A DNA stretch of 64,000 nucleotides, taken from Paenibacillus silvisoli. GTDB lineage: Bacteria > Bacillota > Bacilli > Paenibacillales > Paenibacillaceae. Each line of letters begins with the position of its first letter. Position 1 is the first letter of the stretch. A model generated the notes under the pieces. The model did no database searches. It saw only the letters and a program-made list of their open reading frames with translations, and was not told the DNA's origin. The stretch is from NCBI RefSeq assembly GCF_030866765.1, contig NZ_CP133017.1, positions 973,091-1,037,090 on the forward strand, given 5' to 3'. Shown in pieces: positions 3,104-29,606 of the stretch. Position numbers and translations under genes: made by a program.

Positions 3104-4174
3104 ATGCGGCGTACACGAGGACTAGGGCGAAAGAAATATGCGGCCGCTGTTACGGCGGTCATGATTCTAGCCGGGCTGCTCGCCGGCTGCGGGTCCGAGG
3201 AGCCGCAGCATTCGGCGCGAGTGGAGCTTGGAGCTGCGATGCCGATCGAGGGAGATTCCTCGGCAGCGGGCAAATCCGCGGAACTCGCGGTTGCCGCGGA
3301 TTTGCAGCCGGCGGATGGCGAAGCGAGTCAGGTAGCGAAGGTGGTTGTTGCAGGCGATTCGCCAGCTGAAGGTGACGACGGCGACGCGAAAGAGACCGCC
3401 GGCAGCGGAGATGCACCTGAGCCTGCTAGCAGCGAGGGCGTCGAACTGGCAGCGAAAGCCGAAGCGACGACGCCTCCCGCGAAGCAGCCAGCGGTAACCA
3501 CTCCGCCTGCAAAGCAACCGGAGGCGGTGAAGCCGGCCGCGCTGGATATACCGACGGAGCCGTCTGTGAAGTTCGCGGGCAAGAAAGGCGCGAAGCTGGT
3601 GGCGCTGACGTTCGATGACGGGCCGGATGATCATTTTACGCCGGCGATTTTGGATATATTGAAGGAGAAGAAGGTGCACGCGACCTTTTTCACGGTAGGC
3701 ATTCAAGTGAAGCGCCATGCGAAGGTGATGAAGCGCATCCTGCAGGAAGGCAGCGAGATCGGCAACCACAGCTATGCGCATAAAGATCTATCCAAACTTG
3801 ACAGTCTAAAGATCGTAGAGCAAATTAAATGGACGGATATCAATATCAATAAGCAGATCGGCTATGTTCCCCGCCTGGTGCGTGCCCCGTACGGCGCCGT
3901 TTCGCCGCTGTTGAAGGACATCGTCAAGCAAAATCGGCGCGAGTTGGTCGGCTGGACCGTCGACACGCGCGATTGGGAGGGCAGCACGGTGGCGGAGATG
4001 AGGGCCAACGTGAGCAAAAATACGCATGCCGGCGGCATTATTTTGATGCATTCGTTTGGGAATAAATATGTGAACAACACGGTACAGCTGCTCCCTCAGA
4101 TCATTGAGGATTTGAAGAGCAAAGGCTTTACGTTCGTGACCGTGAGCGAGCTGCTGGCCGCGAAGAAAAAGTAA
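3104..4174 (+). CDS. Polysaccharide deacetylase family lipoprotein (NodB homology domain)
   Basis: Lipobox LAGLLAGCGS. Ala/Glu/Pro-rich linker with the repeat TTPPAKQP. NodB motifs TFDDGP...HATFF...NHSYAH are present. Confidence 0.8.
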   Translation: MRRTRGLGRKKYAAAVTAVMILAGLLAGCGSEEPQHSARVELGAAMPIEGDSSAAGKSAELAVAADLQPADGEASQVAKVVVAGDSPAEGDDGDAKETAGSGDAPEPASSEGVELAAKAEATTPPAKQPAVTTPPAKQPEAVKPAALDIPTEPSVKFAGKKGAKLVALTFDDGPDDHFTPAILDILKEKKVHATFFTVGIQVKRHAKVMKRILQEGSEIGNHSYAHKDLSKLDSLKIVEQIKWTDININKQIGYVPRLVRAPYGAVSPLLKDIVKQNRRELVGWTVDTRDWEGSTVAEMRANVSKNTHAGGIILMHSFGNKYVNNTVQLLPQIIEDLKSKGFTFVTVSELLAAKKK

Positions 4175-19868: not shown

Positions 19869-21329
19869 ATGAGCAGCAAGCTGCAAGTACCGGTAAACAA
19901 AAATGAAGAAGTCACCGTCGACATTGTCGGCTTGACGCATGAAGGCGAAGGGGTAGGCCGTGTCGACGGCTTTACCCTTTTTATACAGGGAGCCCTACCC
20001 GGCGAGCGCGTCCGCGCGAAGGTGCTGAAGGTGAAGAAGACGTACGGCTACGCGAAGATGCTGGAATTGGTGGTGGGGAGCCCGGACCGCGTGGAGGCGC
20101 CGTGCGCGATCTATAAGCAGTGCGGCGGCTGCCAGCTGCAGCACTTGGGCTATGAGGCACAGCTGGCGTGGAAGCGGCAGCATGTGGTCGATAATTTGGA
20201 GCGGATCGGGAAGCTGCGAGTTGCGGGGGCGGACGGTGTGGGCGGTGTGCTCGTTCACCCGACGATCGGGATGAACGAGCCTTGGCGCTACCGGAACAAG
20301 GCAGCCGTGCCGATGGGCATGGCCGCTGTGGCGACAGGCGGGGACGGCGACGGCTTGGTGTCGGCCGAGCGCCTGATCGGCGGTTTCTATGCGCGCGGCA
20401 GCCACCGCATTATTGATATGGACGAGTGCATGATTCAGCACTCTTGGAATGATGAAATCGTGGCTCGCGTGAAAGAGATTGGGCGTGAGTTAGGGATTAC
20501 GGCCTACAACGAGGAGACTGGCCGGGGCTTGTTGCGTCATGTTATGACGCGCGTCGGTTTTGTGAGCGGTGATGCAATGATTGTGCTTATCACGAATGGG
20601 GATCGGATTCCACAGGTGGATCGCTGGGTTGAGCGGATTCGTGAAGCGGCGCCGAATGTGAAGAGTATTGTGCAGAATGTGAACAAGCGTAACACCAACG
20701 TCATCTTTGGCGACGAGACCCGTGTGTTGTGGGGCAGCGAGGTCATCTATGATGAGCTTGACGGTATTCGCTTCGCGATTTCGGCGCGTTCGTTCTACCA
20801 GGTGAATCCGGTGCAAACGGTGGAGTTGTACCGCAAAGCGGTGGAGTATGCTGCGCTGACGGGGCGTGAACGGGTTATCGACGCCTACTGTGGCATCGGC
20901 ACGATTTCGCTGTTCTTGGCTCGCCAGGCGGGCCATGTCTACGGTGTCGAGATCGTGCCGGAGGCTATCGAGGACGCCGGGCGCAATGCGGCGCTGAACG
21001 GCATCGAGAACGCCTCCTTTGAAGCCGGCCCGGCTGAAGTCGTTATCCCGCGCTGGCGCAAAGAGGGCATCGTCGCGGATGTAATCGTCGTCGATCCGCC
21101 GCGCAAAGGCTGCGATGAAGCGCTGCTTGAGACGATCCTAGCGATGCGGCCGGAGCGGGTGGTGTATGTGTCGTGTAATCCTTCGACACTAGCCCGCGAT
21201 CTGCGTGTGCTTGAGGACGGCGGCTATCGGACGGTTGAGGTGCAGCCGGTGGATATGTTTCCGCATACGGTGCATGTAGAGTCCGTGGTAATGCTTACCC
21301 AATATGTAACAACCGAAGTTAAAGTATGA
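19869..21329 (+). CDS. rlmD: 23S rRNA (uracil-C5)-methyltransferase RlmCD/RumA family (TRAM, 4Fe-4S, MTase)
   Basis: TRAM N-terminus, Cys cluster [17 protein letters not shown] motif [11 protein letters not shown], catalytic VDPPRKG. Confidence 0.85.
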
Positions 21330-21340
21330 GTAAAGTTATC

Positions 21341-21385
21341 GAACCCGAGTGATTGGAAATGGCGCTCGGGTTCTTATAATTTTGC
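21341..21385 (+). terminator. Rho-independent terminator after rlmCD; marks the left edge of the low-GC island
   Basis: gaacccgag-N15-ctcgggttc followed by TTATAATTTT. Confidence 0.75.
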
Positions 21386-21431: not shown

Positions 21432-21833
21432 TTAAGGAGAGCCTTTGCGAACAAACTGATTTTTAGCCACCAAAATGTCCCTACAGGTTTGTTCTATCAC
21501 TAAATCAAAGTTGGATTTGAGATCATGTTCCCAGACCCTGACTAAAAGCCATTTATTATTAATGTAGTATTGAGTAACTTCCCAATCTCTCTCAATGTTA
21601 CGATTTATTTTTTTATTCCAGTAATCTGAATTCTTTGAAGGCAACTTAAAGTGGGTTTTACATCCATGCCAGAAACATGAATCAATGAAAATGGCGACTT
21701 TGTACTTTTTTATTGCTATATCAGGCTTTCCGTACAATGAAAGAACGTTTTTTCGAAATCTAAAGCCATTTTTCCAAAGGGTCTTTGAGACGGACTGTTC
21801 TAATTTAGTATTTTTACCTCTTATTTTCCCCAT
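21432..21833 (-). CDS. vsr: Very-short-patch-repair (Vsr) T:G mismatch endonuclease, orphan (no adjacent Dcm)
   Basis: 133 aa, colinear with E. coli Vsr: KIRGKNTKLE...PDIAIKKYKVAIFIDSCFWHGC...WNKKINRNIERDWEV...WLLVRVWEHD. AT-rich. Confidence 0.8.
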   Translation of the reverse strand: MGKIRGKNTKLEQSVSKTLWKNGFRFRKNVLSLYGKPDIAIKKYKVAIFIDSCFWHGCKTHFKLPSKNSDYWNKKINRNIERDWEVTQYYINNKWLLVRVWEHDLKSNFDLVIEQTCRDILVAKNQFVRKGSP

Positions 21834-21893
21834 TGCCTTGCTTCTGAGATCATTAGTAGAAATGCTCTACCACGCTCCTCGGAATAATAATTA

Positions 21894-21907
21894 AGAACAT
21901 ATGTTCC
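21894..21907. promoter_or_regulatory. Putative LexA (DinR) binding site / Cheo box
   Basis: AGAACATATGTTCC matches the Bacillus SOS-box consensus CGAACATATGTTCG at 12/14 positions, with a perfect GAAC-N4-GTTC core. Located in the divergent vsr / McrB-like intergenic region. Confidence 0.55.
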
Positions 21908-22062
21908 ATATGTATTGATTTTACTTCTATATCGATTCGAAAACAATATTATCCTTTTCATTAGTGGAGTACGTATCTTTCCCTTCAGAAGGACTTTGAG
22001 CCTACCTTATCGAAATCTAAGACGGGACAAAACTTATTATTTCGATTTGGAGCGAGACGACT

Positions 22063-24801
22063 ATGACACTTCCAGTAGAACTGGCATCTATATTTCACGC
22101 AAAACAAAAATCCTACAAAATGGTCCTGATCCTATCCATTCTGAATGAGTACCAACAGACCAAGCTTCAATTTCTACCGCTCAATGCTGTTGCTGAGCGG
22201 TTTTTGTCTTATTTTCGGAATGCCACAAGAGCTGGTGAGACTGTAGACTTACCACCTCAGAAAGTGACTACTAGTTGGGAGGAACTCACGCTAGCTCGGA
22301 CCAAATCTCTACTGCAAACACCTATCGAGGCGTTGAAGTTTATACTAGATGCAAATGCAGAAACAATAACATTCAAGCCCCACATATGGTCGTTACTACA
22401 TGAACAACATTTAGACGAGCTCAGAGAATATGCAGAGTCTGAGCTAGCGAAGTATAACGAAGAGCTCGCGATGAATTCATCATTTTCTTTGAAAGCTTCG
22501 TTCGACCAAATGCTGAACAATTATTTGGAATACAAGACACAAGGGTTCGGCGGTCATCCTGTGGGCGCCCTAATTAGACAAGAGATTCCTGCATTTCTCC
22601 AGTCTCAGGAGTTTATCGGCCAGGACTACAAGGTGCAAGGCTCCATTGGCCAAGGCAACTGGGTCGGAGTTCCGTGGATCGCGATTTTGGATAAACGACT
22701 AAACGTATCTATTCAGAGCGGTGAATATATCGTCTACCTATTCTCAGAAGATATGAGTGCGGTATATCTGACTTTTGCTCATGGTGTTACCGAGCCGATA
22801 AGAGTCCATAAAAGAAAAGGAGCCTATCCATACTTTAAGCAGAAGTCCGATGAAATGCGGGGTTTCCTGCCTCTCAATAATATGCAAATTGATGAGGAGA
22901 TTCCCGGTCTAGGTGACGACTACCAGGCTGCGATTATCGCATCGATCCGTTACGATCGTAACCAAATACCGGACGATGAGCAGCTGCTCGAGGATCTTCG
23001 AAACGTAGTCGACAATTACAAAATATACGCGGACCAAGTGCTTGAAAAGCAGCACCATGAACAAGTCGAACGGCCTGTATTTACATACACAATCGCTCAT
23101 CTCTATCTGGGTAATGGAATCACTCGTTATTTAGGCCAGAATCAGAATCGCTATGTCTCCTTAGAAGAGCTCGTCTCAAACCAAGCAGTTATGCTAAAGT
23201 CCGGCGATGATGTAAAGAACCCCAAGGAAAGAATCCAGCATATTGGGCGAGCGCTGCAAGAGTTGGGCTTAATAACAATTGAAGATAATGAATATTGCCT
23301 AACTGCGAAGGGAATCGAATACGACCAGGCGCTCGGAAAAGAGACCTGGATGCTAAGCATGGGACAGGTCCATCTCTTAAGGGAGCTTTTCTTATCGAAC
23401 GAACATAATGCACAGGCGACTAGATTAATGAAATGCATCCTGCTAGGGATCTCAATCGCGAAAAAGCTCGGAACATTTAAGCTAGACTCGTTCAAATCGT
23501 TGTTTACTTCCGGAATGGGTATGGACAGCGAATGGGGAAATGTAACGCAGGAGAACCGTGCCCGGTTTATGTTGAACTGGCTGGAGGAATTTGCATACGT
23601 TCGCAAAGAAAAAGATGAGTACGCATTTGTCGAAGGGGAGGAAGAACCAGTGGACGAGCGATCGGTGACGGAGCGGGTTGAATATATTAAAGCGTACATC
23701 GAGAGCAAAGGGTTCCATTTTCCTCAAGACTTAGTCGAGAACTTTTATCTATCGCTGAAGAGTAAACCTTTTGTGATCTTGGCCGGGGTCTCCGGAACGG
23801 GGAAAACCAAATTAGTCAAATTGTTCGCGGAGGCGCTGGGGGCGACTAGTTCGAACGGACAGTTCAATCTTATTCCTGTTCGCCCGGATTGGAGCGATCC
23901 ATCCGATTTGCTGGGATATAAAGATTTAACAGGTGCATTTCGGCCCGGACATCTTGCTGAAGTATTGGTTGAAGCATCAAAGAATAGCAATCGGAACAAA
24001 CCTTATTTCATCTGCTTGGATGAAATGAACCTAGCTAGAGTTGAGCATTACTTCAGTGATCTCCTAAGTGTTATTGAAACTCAGGAAAGGCAAAATGACC
24101 GCATTGTCACGGTGCCGCTTATTCAGAGCAAGGGCCTGCTTGCAGAGGATCAACCAACCTATGGTGGTCTAGCGCTACCGGATAACGTCTATATCGTTGG
24201 CACGGTTAACATGGATGAGACAACGCATCCTTTTAGCAAAAAAGTTCTTGATCGAGCCAATACGATTGAGTTTAACTACATCAATCTTGAACAATTTCCA
24301 ACAAGGTTCTCGACCGAGATTGTACCGTTACGAGTGCCTAACTCTTTTTTACGGAGCGATTATCTTCAGCTCATTGACGCGTTCGACTCTAATCAGGAGC
24401 TGGTAAAGAGAATTACGGCTCGGCTGGTCAAGATGAATGGGATTTTGGAACAGGTTCACTCTCATATCGGTTTCCGGATTAGAGACTCGATTAGTTTCTA
24501 TATGATCTATAACGAGCAATTTGAGTTGCTGAGTGAGGATCAAGCTTTTGATCTGCAACTGTTACAGAAGCTGTTGCCCCGCGTTCAAGGCAGTAGTTCA
24601 TCCGTTAAAAGAGTGCTGCTTCAGCTCCTGCAGGAGGCACTAGGTAGGACGTTACCTATCAATGACTTGATGGATGATGCTTCCGGGCTTAATTCGCCGA
24701 TGCAGTCGAACGATGCAAAATATCCGCTTAGTGCGCGTAAGCTCGCATTTATGCTCCGGAGGTTAGAGGAAGATGGATTCACCTCTTATTGGCTCTCCTA
24801 A
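22063..24801 (+). CDS. McrB-like AAA+ GTPase with N-terminal DUF3578 (MrcB_N-like) domain; Type IV restriction-like subunit
   Basis: 912 aa. DUF3578-like block GNWVGVPWIAILDKR...YIVYLF. AAA_5/McrB motifs: Walker A LAGVSGTGKTKL, PVRPDWSDPSDLLGY, Walker B FICLDEMNLA, TVNMDETTHPFS. Confidence 0.7.
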   Translation: MTLPVELASIFHAKQKSYKMVLILSILNEYQQTKLQFLPLNAVAERFLSYFRNATRAGETVDLPPQKVTTSWEELTLARTKSLLQTPIEALKFILDANAETITFKPHIWSLLHEQHLDELREYAESELAKYNEELAMNSSFSLKASFDQMLNNYLEYKTQGFGGHPVGALIRQEIPAFLQSQEFIGQDYKVQGSIGQGNWVGVPWIAILDKRLNVSIQSGEYIVYLFSEDMSAVYLTFAHGVTEPIRVHKRKGAYPYFKQKSDEMRGFLPLNNMQIDEEIPGLGDDYQAAIIASIRYDRNQIPDDEQLLEDLRNVVDNYKIYADQVLEKQHHEQVERPVFTYTIAHLYLGNGITRYLGQNQNRYVSLEELVSNQAVMLKSGDDVKNPKERIQHIGRALQELGLITIEDNEYCLTAKGIEYDQALGKETWMLSMGQVHLLRELFLSNEHNAQATRLMKCILLGISIAKKLGTFKLDSFKSLFTSGMGMDSEWGNVTQENRARFMLNWLEEFAYVRKEKDEYAFVEGEEEPVDERSVTERVEYIKAYIESKGFHFPQDLVENFYLSLKSKPFVILAGVSGTGKTKLVKLFAEALGATSSNGQFNLIPVRPDWSDPSDLLGYKDLTGAFRPGHLAEVLVEASKNSNRNKPYFICLDEMNLARVEHYFSDLLSVIETQERQNDRIVTVPLIQSKGLLAEDQPTYGGLALPDNVYIVGTVNMDETTHPFSKKVLDRANTIEFNYINLEQFPTRFSTEIVPLRVPNSFLRSDYLQLIDAFDSNQELVKRITARLVKMNGILEQVHSHIGFRIRDSISFYMIYNEQFELLSEDQAFDLQLLQKLLPRVQGSSSSVKRVLLQLLQEALGRTLPINDLMDDASGLNSPMQSNDAKYPLSARKLAFMLRRLEEDGFTSYWLS

Positions 24802-27187
24802 CCGAAGCATCGAGCTGCTTCGCATTGAGTCGAATTTATTCAATCTCTATATACACGGGAAGCCATTTCACCCGACCGTGGATTCGTTGCAGCTTCATCG
24901 AAATGAAGAACGGCAGCTTATTCCTGCTCAGCTTCTGGTTTCTTCTACATCGAGCGTATTAGTGATTGAGAAGCTGTATGTGTTTAACCCGGAAGTTCTG
25001 AAGCTAGTAGATTGGCAGACGGGAGAGGCTGCCTACCCTCTATTTTTCGAAACGCAGTCTTATGAGTTTGTCGTCGAAAAGAAAGAGGATGTGCCGATTG
25101 CGTTCTTCCACGAGAACCTGAATATTCGCCAAGCAGTGAAACCGCTGGGCAGAGGATCGATTCTCTCCGGCGTGCTTAACTTCCAGAATGAAGTAGGGTT
25201 AACCGATCTGGAGCTACGCATGCATGGGAAGACGTTGCTTTCGCTGCAACTTGAAATCTTCCCTGTAAAAATGGACTACAAGCGCGATTATCAGATGATC
25301 TTGAATGATGTGAACCAGCAGATTTATAATCTTTCGTTTGATTTTCTGCGTAAGACCTATAATTTGACCGGGCTTAAAGAGACGAAGAATCAGAGTTTAA
25401 CGGAGTTTTTCTCCATTCTAAAACATGTCTTTAGTCATTTAATTCAGGCCGTGGAACGGATTCAATTTGCGCCACATTCTAAGCATCAGGTTGAAAATCG
25501 AATTGTATCGTCCGGGCAAGTGAGAAAGCCGGGAAAAAAGAATATCCAGTTTCTTAGTAAGCATCCGCACCTTCTAGTGCAGGACAATCATGGGATCGTG
25601 TCTATTCATGGGCAACGCTACAACCCGAGTCATGCGCTAGAGACGAAGCGTTACGTGGACTATGATACGAATGAGAATCGGTTCGTTAGATGGGTTTTAC
25701 AGCGGATCGCGCAGAAGCTTAAAGCGTTGAAACAACGTTTAACCGAGAAAGGGAAGCTTCTTGATCCCCACTTATCCAGGCAACTAACAGATATGCAATC
25801 TCAGATGCAGAGGCTGTTGGGATTGGATTTTCTGCAGGTCAAGGATATGAACAAGCTCTCGATTACGATTGTCCTGCAAATGGCACCGGGGTACCGTGAC
25901 GTGTATCGCAACTATCTCATGCTGATGAAGGGGTTATCTATCCAGAGTGATCTGTTCCATTTGTCCATGAAGGACTTGGCCCAACTATACGAATACTGGT
26001 GCTTCTTGAAAATACACGATCTGCTTAGTCGTAAATACGAGCTACTAAAACAAGATATTATTAAAGTGAATCGAACAGGCATCTTTGTCACGCTAGATAA
26101 GACGCAGAAGGCCAAGGTGGTCTACCGAAATCCTAAGAATGGCGAAGAGTTTACGCTATATTACAACACCTTGCCGCTTGGCGAGAAGACGCATACGGTT
26201 GCTCAGCGGCCGGATAATGTTTTGACGCTCAAGAAGAATGATTCCAAGACTGTGTATAAATATGTTTTCGATGCTAAGTACCGACTAGATCCTGCATACG
26301 AAGGGACGCCATACAGCCGCAATTACAAAATACCGGGACCCGAGGAATCGGATATCAATACAATGCATCGATACCGAGATGCGATTGTGTGCGAGGAAGA
26401 GCGCGGGGACGGAATTGAGCGGAGTATGTTCGGCGCGTTTGTGCTTTTTCCGTACCACGATGAGGAGCAGTATAAAGAGCATCGATTTTATAAAAGCATT
26501 CAGCTAGTGAACGTAGGGGCATTCCCGTTTTTGCCGAATGCGACGAAGTTAATGGAAGCTTTCCTGGATGAGATTATCTCGGATAGTCCAGAGAGGTCCT
26601 ATGAACGGGCAACTCGTCCAAGCGGTACGAAGACCTACTACCAGAATCAATTGAGTGGCCGAAACGTTCTAGTCGGATCGATGCGCAGAGTAGAGCAGTT
26701 AGACGAGGCTTTGAAGCATAGCTTCTATCACGTGCCGCTTGAGAATTTGACGGACCATACTGTACTCTCTCAATTGGAGTATGTAGCACTTTATCAATCT
26801 GTGAAGCAATTCGAATCTCAAGGCAGGGGCTCTGGTATCCAATGGTATGGAAAGATAAAAGACTGGAAGGTGCTCAGAAGGAGCGAAATCTCTGAAATCC
26901 CGGCAAGAGCTGGAACGGAGAACAAGCTCTACGTGAAATTCACCGTGGAGCGTTGGATGAAGCGGGAGAAGTCGATCATACCTGGCGGGCATGGGATTTA
27001 TTCGTTATTGTTGACGTCGATATATATTTTCGATCGAGCGGATGAAGTGGCTGAGTTGAGGCTTGAAACGGAAGAGGATATTCGTCTATGGCGCGAGAAG
27101 CGTCGACAAGGGCGTTTGAAGGTAGAGCTCGATCATGAGCAGGCTGATTTGGCTAGCAAGGTTGAAGCCATAACAGATGTAGAATAG
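24773..27187 (+). CDS. McrC-like partner (DUF2357-like N-terminal region, PD-(D/E)xK nuclease core, extra C-terminal domain)
   Basis: 804 aa, overlaps the upstream gene by 29 nt. McrC-like motifs DYDTNENRFVRWVL and YVFDAKYRLD (D...EXK-type core). Confidence 0.6.
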   Translation: MDSPLIGSPNRSIELLRIESNLFNLYIHGKPFHPTVDSLQLHRNEERQLIPAQLLVSSTSSVLVIEKLYVFNPEVLKLVDWQTGEAAYPLFFETQSYEFVVEKKEDVPIAFFHENLNIRQAVKPLGRGSILSGVLNFQNEVGLTDLELRMHGKTLLSLQLEIFPVKMDYKRDYQMILNDVNQQIYNLSFDFLRKTYNLTGLKETKNQSLTEFFSILKHVFSHLIQAVERIQFAPHSKHQVENRIVSSGQVRKPGKKNIQFLSKHPHLLVQDNHGIVSIHGQRYNPSHALETKRYVDYDTNENRFVRWVLQRIAQKLKALKQRLTEKGKLLDPHLSRQLTDMQSQMQRLLGLDFLQVKDMNKLSITIVLQMAPGYRDVYRNYLMLMKGLSIQSDLFHLSMKDLAQLYEYWCFLKIHDLLSRKYELLKQDIIKVNRTGIFVTLDKTQKAKVVYRNPKNGEEFTLYYNTLPLGEKTHTVAQRPDNVLTLKKNDSKTVYKYVFDAKYRLDPAYEGTPYSRNYKIPGPEESDINTMHRYRDAIVCEEERGDGIERSMFGAFVLFPYHDEEQYKEHRFYKSIQLVNVGAFPFLPNATKLMEAFLDEIISDSPERSYERATRPSGTKTYYQNQLSGRNVLVGSMRRVEQLDEALKHSFYHVPLENLTDHTVLSQLEYVALYQSVKQFESQGRGSGIQWYGKIKDWKVLRRSEISEIPARAGTENKLYVKFTVERWMKREKSIIPGGHGIYSLLLTSIYIFDRADEVAELRLETEEDIRLWREKRRQGRLKVELDHEQADLASKVEAITDVE

Positions 27188-27200
27188 TAATTACAGTAAT

Positions 27201-27236
27201 CGATGACTCCTGATCAGGGGTCATCTTTTTATTTAT
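27201..27236 (+). terminator. Terminator after the McrC-like gene
   Basis: Palindrome gatgactcctga/tcaggggtcatc followed by TTTTTATTTATT. Confidence 0.7.
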
Positions 27237-27354
27237 TCCGAGGAGCCTCCAATTCTTGCATGTTAGCTTTAGTAATAGTATGGTATTATTTTACTATCGA
27301 TTGGGTAATAAGGCCTTAAAATTAATAAATCTTTTTATGCTAGGGGATAGACTG

Positions 27355-28338
27355 ATGTCATTATTAAATAAACTTTTTGGTCAAAAACGTACAATTCTAA
27401 ATCCAACATTCATAAAAGACTTTACTAAAGAGAATCATCAGCTGGTGGCTCTAAACGAGCTGTATCATAAAGTTGCCGAAGGCGAACAAAAGGATAATAT
27501 CGATAGGGACATTAAGCTCCTAAAGTACGGAATAGATGGAGAGAATAATGTTTATTTCGAATTGAAAAACTCATTCTTACCAATACTCTGTCTTCATGAT
27601 ATTAGACTAGAGTATGAGGATTTCGTTGCTCAACTTGATTTTGTCGTCATTTCGTCCAAATTCATATGCATCCTTGAAACTAAAAAGCTAAGTGGAAACA
27701 TATCGATCGACTCAGACGGTAATTTTACAAGAACTATGAAGAATAAACATGGTAAGGAATTCAAAGAGGGCATCTATAGCCCTGTCACTCAAAATATGAG
27801 ACATGTCGATATACTTAAACATGTACTTTCGAAAGAACTAAAAACCAATAATATGCCGATCATGTCTCTTGTAGTTATGGCTAACCCTAAAACAATAATA
27901 AAGAAATATAAGTGCCCTGCAGAGATTGAAAGAACGCTGATTAAGTATGATCAAATTAAAGCGACGATCGAGAAGTTCCAAGATGATAAGTCGAATCAAT
28001 ACGATCTTCCAGAGAAGGATATGTATGATATAGCTCAAATGCTGATCAGGCTTAATACCCCTATAGAGATGGATTTCAATGCAATGTATCAACTTTCAAG
28101 TGAAACTTCAAAAAGAAAAAGTGAAGAAACGCTTCGAGAAGAGCTGACAGCCTACAGGCTGCAGACTTCAAGAGTGGAACAAATCAAAGCGTACTACATT
28201 TATAATAATGCTGAAATGGAAGAGATGATTGCAAAATACCCTAGAACAGAGAATGAGTTGCTGGAAGTAAAGGGTTTTGGGAAAGTAAAGGTAGAGAAGT
28301 ATGGGAGTGCAATTTTAAACATATTTAATGGGGATTAA
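27355..28338 (+). CDS. NERD-domain nuclease-like protein with C-terminal HRDC-like domain
   Basis: Start moved to the ATG at 27355 (GGGGA RBS). NERD-like core DFVVISSKFICILETKK...YSPVTQNMRHVDIL. C-terminus ELLEVKGFGKVKVEKYGSAIL resembles RecQ-type HRDC/HhH. Confidence 0.6.
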   Translation: MSLLNKLFGQKRTILNPTFIKDFTKENHQLVALNELYHKVAEGEQKDNIDRDIKLLKYGIDGENNVYFELKNSFLPILCLHDIRLEYEDFVAQLDFVVISSKFICILETKKLSGNISIDSDGNFTRTMKNKHGKEFKEGIYSPVTQNMRHVDILKHVLSKELKTNNMPIMSLVVMANPKTIIKKYKCPAEIERTLIKYDQIKATIEKFQDDKSNQYDLPEKDMYDIAQMLIRLNTPIEMDFNAMYQLSSETSKRKSEETLREELTAYRLQTSRVEQIKAYYIYNNAEMEEMIAKYPRTENELLEVKGFGKVKVEKYGSAILNIFNGD

Positions 28339-28402
28339 GCTAATCAAGCTTGCCGCATTTTGCAAGGTGTGAATTGAATTGTTTAACTAGGAGAGGGATG
28401 TT

Positions 28403-28654
28403 ATGTCGCCTAATCGTAATTGGATTCCAGTTACATTTAAAAAAAGTAACCAGCCTTTTAAGGAATTCGAAAGTATTCAAGAATGCTTTAGATATTTAGC
28501 GACTATGAGTGAATTTGTAGGACATAGCAAGAGTGAAATTTATAACATAATTAATGCTGGTATAGATGTAGCAAAGCCCCACGGGGAATTTACGTTCGAA
28601 ACTCCCTATGATGTACAAGCCAGAGCGAATCGCAAAACAAGAAGAGGATACTGA
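28403..28654 (+). CDS. Hypothetical small protein (83 aa)
   Basis: AGGAGAGGG RBS. AT-rich island gene downstream of the NERD gene. No recognisable domain. Confidence 0.4.
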   Translation: MSPNRNWIPVTFKKSNQPFKEFESIQECFRYLATMSEFVGHSKSEIYNIINAGIDVAKPHGEFTFETPYDVQARANRKTRRGY

Positions 28655-28697
28655 GTGAAAAACTAACAAGATATATAGATGAGTATTGAAAAAATTG

Positions 28698-28738
28698 AAG
28701 GGGCGAGCTAATAGCTTAATTAGCTGCGCCCCTCTATA
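28698..28738. terminator. Bidirectional terminator between convergent island genes
   Basis: gaaggggcgagctaat-agc-ttaattagctgcgcccctct. Confidence 0.65.
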
Positions 28739-28778
28739 AATTGACCATGTACCGACAGCAATCTACTTAGTAGAGGAA

Positions 28779-29606
28779 CTATGAAGTTAGCTCCTCATCC
28801 CCCTCCGCACTAACCCCATAACGCTCCAAAGCCTTCGTCGAAGACTCAAGCATCCGCTTTTTCAAATACTCCGCTTCTACCACCCGAACCCGTTTCCCAA
28901 GAAACCGGATCTTGGACAATAAATACTCCGCTTCATCCTTAAGCAGCGAAACGCGGACCAGATAAGTATCGTTCATCGTATCGTACTCCACGTTCTTCTC
29001 GAAGCTGGAGAAGGCGTACAGAATTCGAGACAATTCCTCGTTATACTGACGGACAATTTCAATGACCGCTTCGCTTTTGCGCGATTCAAGCGTTTTTCCG
29101 ATCCGCCCCAGGATGCTCTCGGCCGTTGACGGATCAACCAATTCCGCGTCGACGGAGTGGATCTTTTTCAGCCGGGTGCTCATAAAGGTACGATACCGAG
29201 CGTGGTACCAGAGCAAGTACCATTCTCGCTTGACCATGGAGTACTCCAGTTTATACGGAAGCCCCAATTGCTCCGAATACACCTGCCCGCCCTTAATTTC
29301 GTAGGTGATGCGGATGCCTGCCTTATTCATGATGTGCCGGCGCAAGGGCCGCAGGAGCGGGTGGTAGACCTGCCGTTCCATGGTACGAGCCTTCTCGATC
29401 AAGTGGAGAGAACTATCCGTAACCTCATCCGGCTCAAGGACAGCCCGAAGCTTCTCCAACGTGTCCGGGGTGAAGGCATCTGCCGTGGCGGGATGCTCCA
29501 TCATCGTCTTGAGCCATGCCCGCTCGTGCGAGGTGACCATGAATGTACCGGAATCCTCCAGCCGGGAGATGATCTGGTGATTAAAGATTTTCTCAAACAG
29601 ATGCAT
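28779..29606 (-). CDS. WYL-domain protein (second of a tandem WYL pair)
   Basis: WYL signature KREWYLLWYHARYRTFMSTRL. ATG at 29606 overlaps the end of the upstream WYL gene by 14 nt, consistent with translational coupling. Confidence 0.65.
   Translation of the reverse strand: MHLFEKIFNHQIISRLEDSGTFMVTSHERAWLKTMMEHPATADAFTPDTLEKLRAVLEPDEVTDSSLHLIEKARTMERQVYHPLLRPLRRHIMNKAGIRITYEIKGGQVYSEQLGLPYKLEYSMVKREWYLLWYHARYRTFMSTRLKKIHSVDAELVDPSTAESILGRIGKTLESRKSEAVIEIVRQYNEELSRILYAFSSFEKNVEYDTMNDTYLVRVSLLKDEAEYLLSKIRFLGKRVRVVEAEYLKKRMLESSTKALERYGVSAEGDEELTS

Follow-up and report, generated by a model that had tools for sequence, protein, structure and literature searches.

The window analyzed here is a stretch of 64,000 nucleotides (64 kb) from Paenibacillus silvisoli contig NZ_CP133017.1, and positions without a locus label are positions in this window. 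It contains a low-G+C island at 21432-30906, with a G+C content of 42-51% compared to ∼57% elsewhere (42-47% in the part carrying the McrBC-like genes). The island genes are vsr; a gene for a 912-amino-acid McrB-like protein (MrcB_N plus AAA_5); a gene for a McrC-like protein (DUF2357 plus PD-(D/E)XK, PDDEXK_7); a NERD-HRDC gene; and two WYL genes. The first ∼148 residues of the McrB-like protein, upstream of MrcB_N, matched no Pfam family, and the sole PADLOC match of this protein is the candidate family PDC-M26A. Also encoded in the window are an SLH-domain surface protein and germination proteins of the GerA type, as in spore-forming Bacillota. At the far end of the island, a gene for an HTH-WYL-WCX regulator (29593-30906, minus strand) and a 141-amino-acid open reading frame are divergent from Band_7, RlaP and RtcB RNA-repair genes (31443-34602, plus strand), and the WYL proteins may regulate this RNA-repair gene set rather than the McrBC-like genes.

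The vsr gene (21432-21863, minus strand) encodes a very-short-patch repair endonuclease of 143 amino acids (Pfam PF03852, E=1.5e-21) that is 100% identical to WP_323132038.1, a 143-amino-acid very short patch repair endonuclease of Paenibacillus silvisoli. The database protein starts at an ATT codon at 21863, 10 codons upstream of the ATG at 21833. The start is limited to this ATT because of an in-frame TAG at 21867-21869. Residues 6-122 align with residues 8-125 of the E. coli Vsr protein (1CW0), and the aligned region includes the stretch upstream of the ATG. The longer form of the protein is credible because the extra residues (LRSKA) align with TRSKN at the N terminus of E. coli Vsr. The Vsr motifs PD...(F/C)WH...WE are present, and the alignment with 1CW0 pairs GKPDI with GRPDF, CFWH with CFWH, and VWE with VWE. 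The expression level of the gene is nevertheless uncertain, because of the unusual ATT start and the TAG just upstream of it. The conserved N-terminal RSK..M motif of this vsr is encoded before the first ATG (minus strand, 21861-21869 region), and in the related locus of Paenibacillus methanolicus (L165, about 3951-4003) the ATG that follows the Shine-Dalgarno sequence is not in the reading frame of the annotated ATG. It may be that some of these vsr genes have a decaying 5′ end or start translation in an unusual way.

This vsr is solitary. No C5-methyltransferase was found with tblastn, using three C5-methyltransferases as queries, in the 64-kb window or in nine related vsr loci, and the adjacent or overlapping C5-methyltransferase of a dcm-vsr pair is absent from the window vsr. 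The usual Dcm-Vsr logic is therefore not evident locally, and it is possible that a methyltransferase is encoded elsewhere in the P. silvisoli genome. The gene is monocistronic, because the next gene (rlmCD-like, 19869-21329, plus strand) is convergent with it. A sigma-70-like match, TTGGAA-16-TATAAT (10/12), lies at 21353-21380 on the plus strand, just past the rlmCD-like stop codon and antisense into the 3′ end of vsr; it may be due to chance.

Upstream of vsr, a putative promoter, a predicted LexA (Cheo-box) operator and a ribosome-binding site follow one another in the order -35, -10, box, Shine-Dalgarno sequence and ATT start on the minus strand. The putative -35 element, TTGTTT (21941-21946), matches the consensus at only three of six positions and so escaped a scan for consensus promoters; TTGTTT occurs at the equivalent place in the related locus L163. 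It is separated by 17 nt from a putative -10 element, TAAAAT (21918-21923), assigned from the sequence and from the orthologues, which lies 10 nt upstream of the box. These weak hexamers (TTGTTT-17-TAAAAT) were picked by eye and by analogy with orthologues, and a scan for sigma-70 consensus promoters reported none in the region between vsr and the McrB-like gene. The Shine-Dalgarno sequence of vsr, GAGGAG (21875-21880), is separated by 13 nt from the box upstream of it and by 11 nt from the ATT.

The box itself, at 21894-21907, reads AGAACATATGTTCC on the plus strand and GGAACATATGTTCT on the vsr-coding minus strand. It matches the Bacillus LexA consensus CGAACATATGTTCG in 12 of 14 positions, and both mismatches fall on the outermost bases; the GAAC-N4-GTTC core is perfect, and the spacer is the consensus ATAT. 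The site is 61 nt from the ATG of vsr (21833) and 156 nt from the ATG of the McrB-like gene (22063), in an intergenic region of 229 bp measured from ATG to ATG, and is only 30 nt from the ATT at 21863, the start used by NCBI for Vsr. The original prediction, made from the letters of the window, had placed a near-consensus box of this sequence, match and core at these positions, ∼60 bp from vsr and ∼160 bp from the McrB-like start, and the sequence and both distances are as it stated.

A single perfect GAAC-N4-GTTC core occurs in the 64-kb window. By itself this lone core is no evidence, because about one is expected by chance: the bare core is expected 0.98 times per window, and at least one core was present in 67 of 100 dinucleotide-preserving shuffles. 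Perfect cores had a background frequency of ∼1.4e-5 per base in the 1.49 Mb of fetched loci, with 21 outside the promoters of the vsr orthologues described below. For the 12-mer GAACATATGTTC with no more than one mismatch, the expectation is 0.05 per window. What makes the box significant is its conservation at the same promoter position in nine of ten vsr orthologues. A second, weak box, CGAAAAAACGTTCT, at 21742-21755 inside vsr, was considered as a parallel to an intragenic LexA box described in Caulobacter and was rejected; the orthologues vary freely there at synonymous positions.

The vsr orthologues were gathered via a protein database, look-ups of contigs with exact sequences, and a metagenome scan, which gave ten loci including the window, with 66-80% protein identity. 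The box was found in the window; in Paenibacillus sp. BK720 (L082, 80%), as AGAACATACGTTCT; in two Logan assemblies of 74% identity, SRR9729500 (L163), where the sequence leading into the box reads TGATATAAT-aaaat-AGAACATGTGTTCT, and SRR31343205 (L164), TGATAAAAT-aaaaa-AGAACATATGTTCC; in P. methanolicus (L165, 70%), TAAAAT-cgaaag-AGAACATACGTTCC; in Cohnella sp. OV330 (L166, 70%), TGATACTAT-aaaat-AGAACATACGTTCT; in Cohnella zeiphila (L168, 69%), TGTTAAAAT-ggata-GGAACACACGTTCT; in P. amylolyticus (L169, 67%), CATAAT-AGAACATAAGTTCC; and in a metagenome locus (L083, the same as L084, 66%), TACTAT-aaaat-AGAACATATGTTTG, which has one mismatch in the core. The remaining orthologue, that of P. humicola (L081, 79%), had no box upstream of its vsr. 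The orthologous boxes have the consensus AGAACATAYGTTCY and come shortly after the -10 element, and every box-bearing vsr locus has a GGAGG-type ribosome-binding site 12-25 nt beyond the box. The -10 element before the box is TAAAAT in L164 and L165 and TATAAT, TACTAT or TAAAAT in L163, L166, L083 and L168, with a TG extension in L163, L164, L166 and L168. The -10 and the box are farther apart in the window (10 nt) than in most orthologues (1-6 nt), and the spacing in Paenibacillus sp. BK720 is 13 nt.

Conservation in these promoters is concentrated in the box. When the loci were anchored on it, the information content averaged 1.70 bits per position within the box compared to 0.79 in the 5′ flank and 0.47 in the 3′ flank, and the window was 79-86% identical to the orthologues in the box and 28-38% identical in the flanks. 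The half-sites are constant, save for the one core mismatch in the metagenome locus, whereas the 4-nt spacer varies among orthologues (ATAT, ATAC, ATGT, ACAC, ATAA), a pattern that is the signature of an operator for a dimeric helix-turn-helix protein. BLAST alignments of the window with the other vsr loci end within the coding region, and the neighbors of the vsr orthologues are mutually unrelated, comprising glycoside hydrolases, ABC transporters, and arrays of small unknown genes. Orthologous boxes share ancestry and are thus not fully independent observations. No perfect core was present within 250 nt upstream of vsr in 78 more distant loci (≤62% identity), and the operator therefore characterizes this one clade of vsr. 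Collections of plasmids, phages and viral contigs yielded only distant Vsr relatives, with identities of ≤58.5%.

Several lines of evidence point to LexA as the protein that would recognize this operator. In Firmicutes, the LexA motif has been documented as GAAC-N4-GTTC (PMC4951493; PMC4551915), and B. subtilis LexA binds SPbeta operators with 3-4 mismatches to the consensus in vitro with Kd values of 3.9-12 nM (PMC8270828). The box in the window has two mismatches, none of them in the core, compared to the 3-4 of these bound operators, and it shares its outer bases with one of them, AGAACACTTGTTCC (PMC8270828). The consensus and the example operators used in these comparisons were taken from PMC8270828, PMC4551915 and PMC4951493. 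All Paenibacillus LexA proteins retrieved (120 listed, with the P. silvisoli LexA not among them) carry the helix-turn-helix stretch GLASSSTVHGHL. We take this stretch to be identical in B. subtilis LexA. Furthermore, tandem boxes with the same layout, directly after a -10 element, precede a gene for a Y-family polymerase in the related locus L133, and Y-family polymerases are classical SOS genes. Literature searches on the Paenibacillus LexA regulon and on ydiO/LexA yielded nothing useful.

Considered together, these comparisons make it highly probable that this 14-base palindrome functions as a LexA operator and that it serves vsr, which forms a self-contained transcription unit with no other gene. 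With such an operator, the solitary vsr is likely to be an SOS gene. The proposal that a LexA (Cheo) box places vsr under SOS control thus gains strong support from phylogenetic footprinting and from the geometry of the promoter. In an undamaged cell, a LexA dimer would occupy GAAC-N4-GTTC directly downstream of the -10 element. The transcription start near 21911, the binding of LexA and the induction by damage are all predicted from sequence; with this start, LexA would cover approximately +5 to +18, which is a classical repressing position, and would keep RNA polymerase from forming the open complex or from escaping the promoter. Upon DNA damage, activated RecA would promote self-cleavage of LexA, vsr would be derepressed, and the Vsr nicking endonuclease would build up during the SOS response.

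The palindrome could in principle serve a dimeric helix-turn-helix regulator other than LexA that recognizes a similar motif, such as a repressor belonging to a cassette or island. The vsr units that carry the box are mobile or resemble cassettes, and mobile elements often bring their own repressors. However, no regulator gene accompanies the vsr unit, whose neighbors differ at every locus, which argues against a private repressor, and the half-sites and their spacing are exactly those of the Bacillota LexA consensus, the same motif that precedes the Y-family polymerase gene in L133. We therefore consider a different regulator quite unlikely. Extremely unlikely, in our estimation, is that the palindrome is a chance occurrence with no function or that it forms a hairpin in the leader RNA of vsr. 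Although one perfect core per 64 kb is to be expected and the region is A+T-rich, chance does not readily account for a box that is kept in nine of ten orthologues between diverged flanks, and the half-sites show none of the compensatory changes of a conserved hairpin. The hairpin was also rejected on folding: the predicted leader folds no better than shuffled sequences (z = 0.05), and its minimum-energy fold does not contain the palindrome hairpin. An Rfam search with L163, L166 and L083 gave no match.

It was also considered whether the box is a shared, divergent operator that places the McrBC-like operon (22063-27187) under SOS control as well as, or instead of, vsr. The original prediction had named this operon as a possible LexA target and had described the intergenic region as a divergent promoter region; it had also remarked on the co-resident WYL regulators, and none of the present results suggests a link with these. 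The box does lie within the 229-bp intergenic region at 156 nt from the McrB-like start; in one of the homologous loci, L029, the McrB homologue has a C5-methyltransferase gene ∼195 nt upstream of it in the same orientation, and this gene is preceded by a box; and boxes occur elsewhere in such islands (L045, L033). However, none of 80 loci with McrB-like homologues (46-84% identity, almost all from Paenibacillus or Cohnella) carried a box with a perfect core in the 700 bp before the McrB-like gene. A vsr gene was a neighbor in only 1 of the 80 (L048), where it lacks a box. In the closest McrB homologues, upstream conservation extends only from about 21985 to the start codon, so that the conserved sequence begins ∼80 bp past the box. 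No sigma-70-like promoter on the plus strand overlaps the box, and the box moves with vsr into contexts without McrBC. These results indicate that LexA control is not a property of the McrBC-like system, which does not regularly come with a vsr. It is thus very unlikely that this site puts the McrBC-like operon under SOS control; that part of the original prediction is not supported, and the arrangement is better read as a self-contained vsr unit that happens to adjoin a separate McrBC-like island than as a divergent promoter region. The conserved block at 21985-22062 (AGGACTTTgAgCCTACcttATCGAAaTcTAA ... GGGACA ... TTTGGAGCGA) is shared with the closest homologues L001, L002, L026 and L033; it shows no obvious sigma-70 promoter, and it may be bound by a regulator or contain a promoter of an unusual type.

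Boxes were also observed at genes for C5-cytosine methyltransferases and at a Y-family polymerase gene in the fetched loci. A Cheo box lies directly after a -10 element and before C5-cytosine methyltransferase genes (PF00145) in L048 (4092-4105), L029 (255-268) and L113 (2855-2868), and the palindrome GGGAACAACTGTTCCC precedes dcm-vsr operons in L086 (about 1070-1081) and L089 (about 1078-1089). A box with one mismatch, CGAAAATATGTTCT, recurs 136-193 nt upstream of vsr in the divergent regions of L127, L146, L151 and L159, where the product of the opposite-strand gene starts with MIFKKGELF..GPGG, the N terminus of the Pfam-confirmed C5-methyltransferases of L048 and L113. Tandem perfect boxes, AGAACGTTTGTTCT and CGAACAAACGTTCT, located 26 bp apart, are present in L123 (155-192) and L133 (2203-2240); in L133 they precede the Y-family polymerase gene, which is divergent from a vsr. 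Both match the SPbeta yolD and yolC operators exactly or almost exactly. The motif matches at methyltransferase genes suggest that SOS control of 5-methylcytosine modules may extend beyond this vsr clade.

Some of the orthologous vsr units lie within arrays. In L163 (158-5242), L166 (1-2256), L168 (2851-3900) and L169 (3791-6586), the box and vsr are embedded in arrays of small genes with repeats of 95-190 nt between the genes. These four loci come from Logan contig SRR9729500_64, Cohnella sp. OV330 FOKE01000005.1, Cohnella zeiphila JACJVO010000019.1 and P. amylolyticus RIAS01000008.1, respectively. The ends of the repeats, ...TAACGTT..TGTATTCACG and CGTGAATA...TGTTA(G/T)RT... (TGTTAGGT-like), pair with each other, with two compensatory changes in the end stem and more in the inner stem. 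These repeats are provisionally assigned to the attC architecture of integrons on the basis of this pairing. A fragment of a tyrosine recombinase is encoded in L166 (2724-3236). The vsr gene is the sole gene on the opposite strand in L163, L164 and L166, and nearly so in L168 and L169, an orientation that fits a cassette needing its own promoter. Integrons have been reported to be very rare in Firmicutes (PMC9024848). No attC-like repeats were found around the vsr of the window.

The arrays raise the more far-reaching prospect of a solitary vsr under LexA control that travels as a cassette with its own regulation and spreads via integron-like attC arrays in Paenibacillaceae. Its product, which has no partner C5-methyltransferase, would then be a damage-induced nicking nuclease with a role other than Dcm-linked repair. 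We regard this as conceivable, if on balance doubtful. If it were true, Vsr might, for example, limit mutagenesis by SOS polymerases or attack incoming or induced mobile DNA.

With the box assigned to LexA, the likely SOS regulon of Paenibacillaceae gains a Vsr endonuclease, and the comparative support for this is unusually clean. The analysis also corrects an over-reading, in that a restriction system located beside an SOS box is not thereby SOS regulated. The boxes before C5-methyltransferase genes and the presence of vsr in attC-like arrays of Cohnella and Paenibacillus point to SOS control of 5-methylcytosine functions and to integron-like elements, and these side observations may outweigh the site itself in value.

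The closest parallel in operator sequence is the Cheo box CGAACATATGTTCG recognized by B. subtilis LexA (DinR) at recA, dinB and the SPbeta genes yolC/yolD and yorB, which has the same 14-bp palindrome, the same half-sites and a 4-nt A/T-rich spacer. The B. subtilis operators also occupy the same position, overlapping or immediately following the -10 element. The gene under predicted control here differs, being a solitary vsr in a Paenibacillus host; to our knowledge, vsr is absent from the published SOS regulon of B. subtilis. The outer bases A...C/T of the window box are shared with SPbeta sites bound in vitro (PMC8270828). SOS boxes on horizontally moving DNA are found in integrons, GIL01 and the SPbeta prophage, as they are with the vsr units of L163, L166, L168 and L169. 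The integrase of integrons is SOS regulated, whereas in these vsr loci the box is inside the cassette and would serve the cassette's own gene.

The Vsr of the window belongs to the same family (PF03852) as that encoded by the dcm-vsr locus of E. coli, where vsr overlaps dcm and is cotranscribed with it, and we know of no regulation of E. coli vsr by LexA. In contrast, the vsr of the window is monocistronic, with its own predicted promoter and operator, and has no C5-methyltransferase within 64 kb. Greater similarity in apparent regulation is found in Caulobacter crescentus, in which the mRNA of vsrA rises upon DNA damage and a consensus LexA box is located inside the open reading frame (PMC12907096). 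Like the P. silvisoli vsr, for which the SOS link is predicted, vsrA encodes an SOS-linked endonuclease of the Vsr family, has a LexA box associated with the gene, and is not adjacent to its methyltransferase (PMC12907096). The Caulobacter box is, however, an alphaproteobacterial direct repeat, GTTC-N7-GTTC, located ∼133 bp inside the open reading frame, and the main promoter of vsrA is not damage responsive (PMC12907096), whereas the P. silvisoli box is a promoter-proximal palindrome that is predicted to be an operator. The authors of the Caulobacter study proposed that Vsr helps to correct mismatches made during the SOS response (PMC12907096), and by analogy this rationale could apply to the P. 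silvisoli Vsr. Considered alongside Caulobacter vsrA, the predicted LexA operator of the P. silvisoli vsr suggests that damage-induced very-short-patch nicking may recur across distant phyla.
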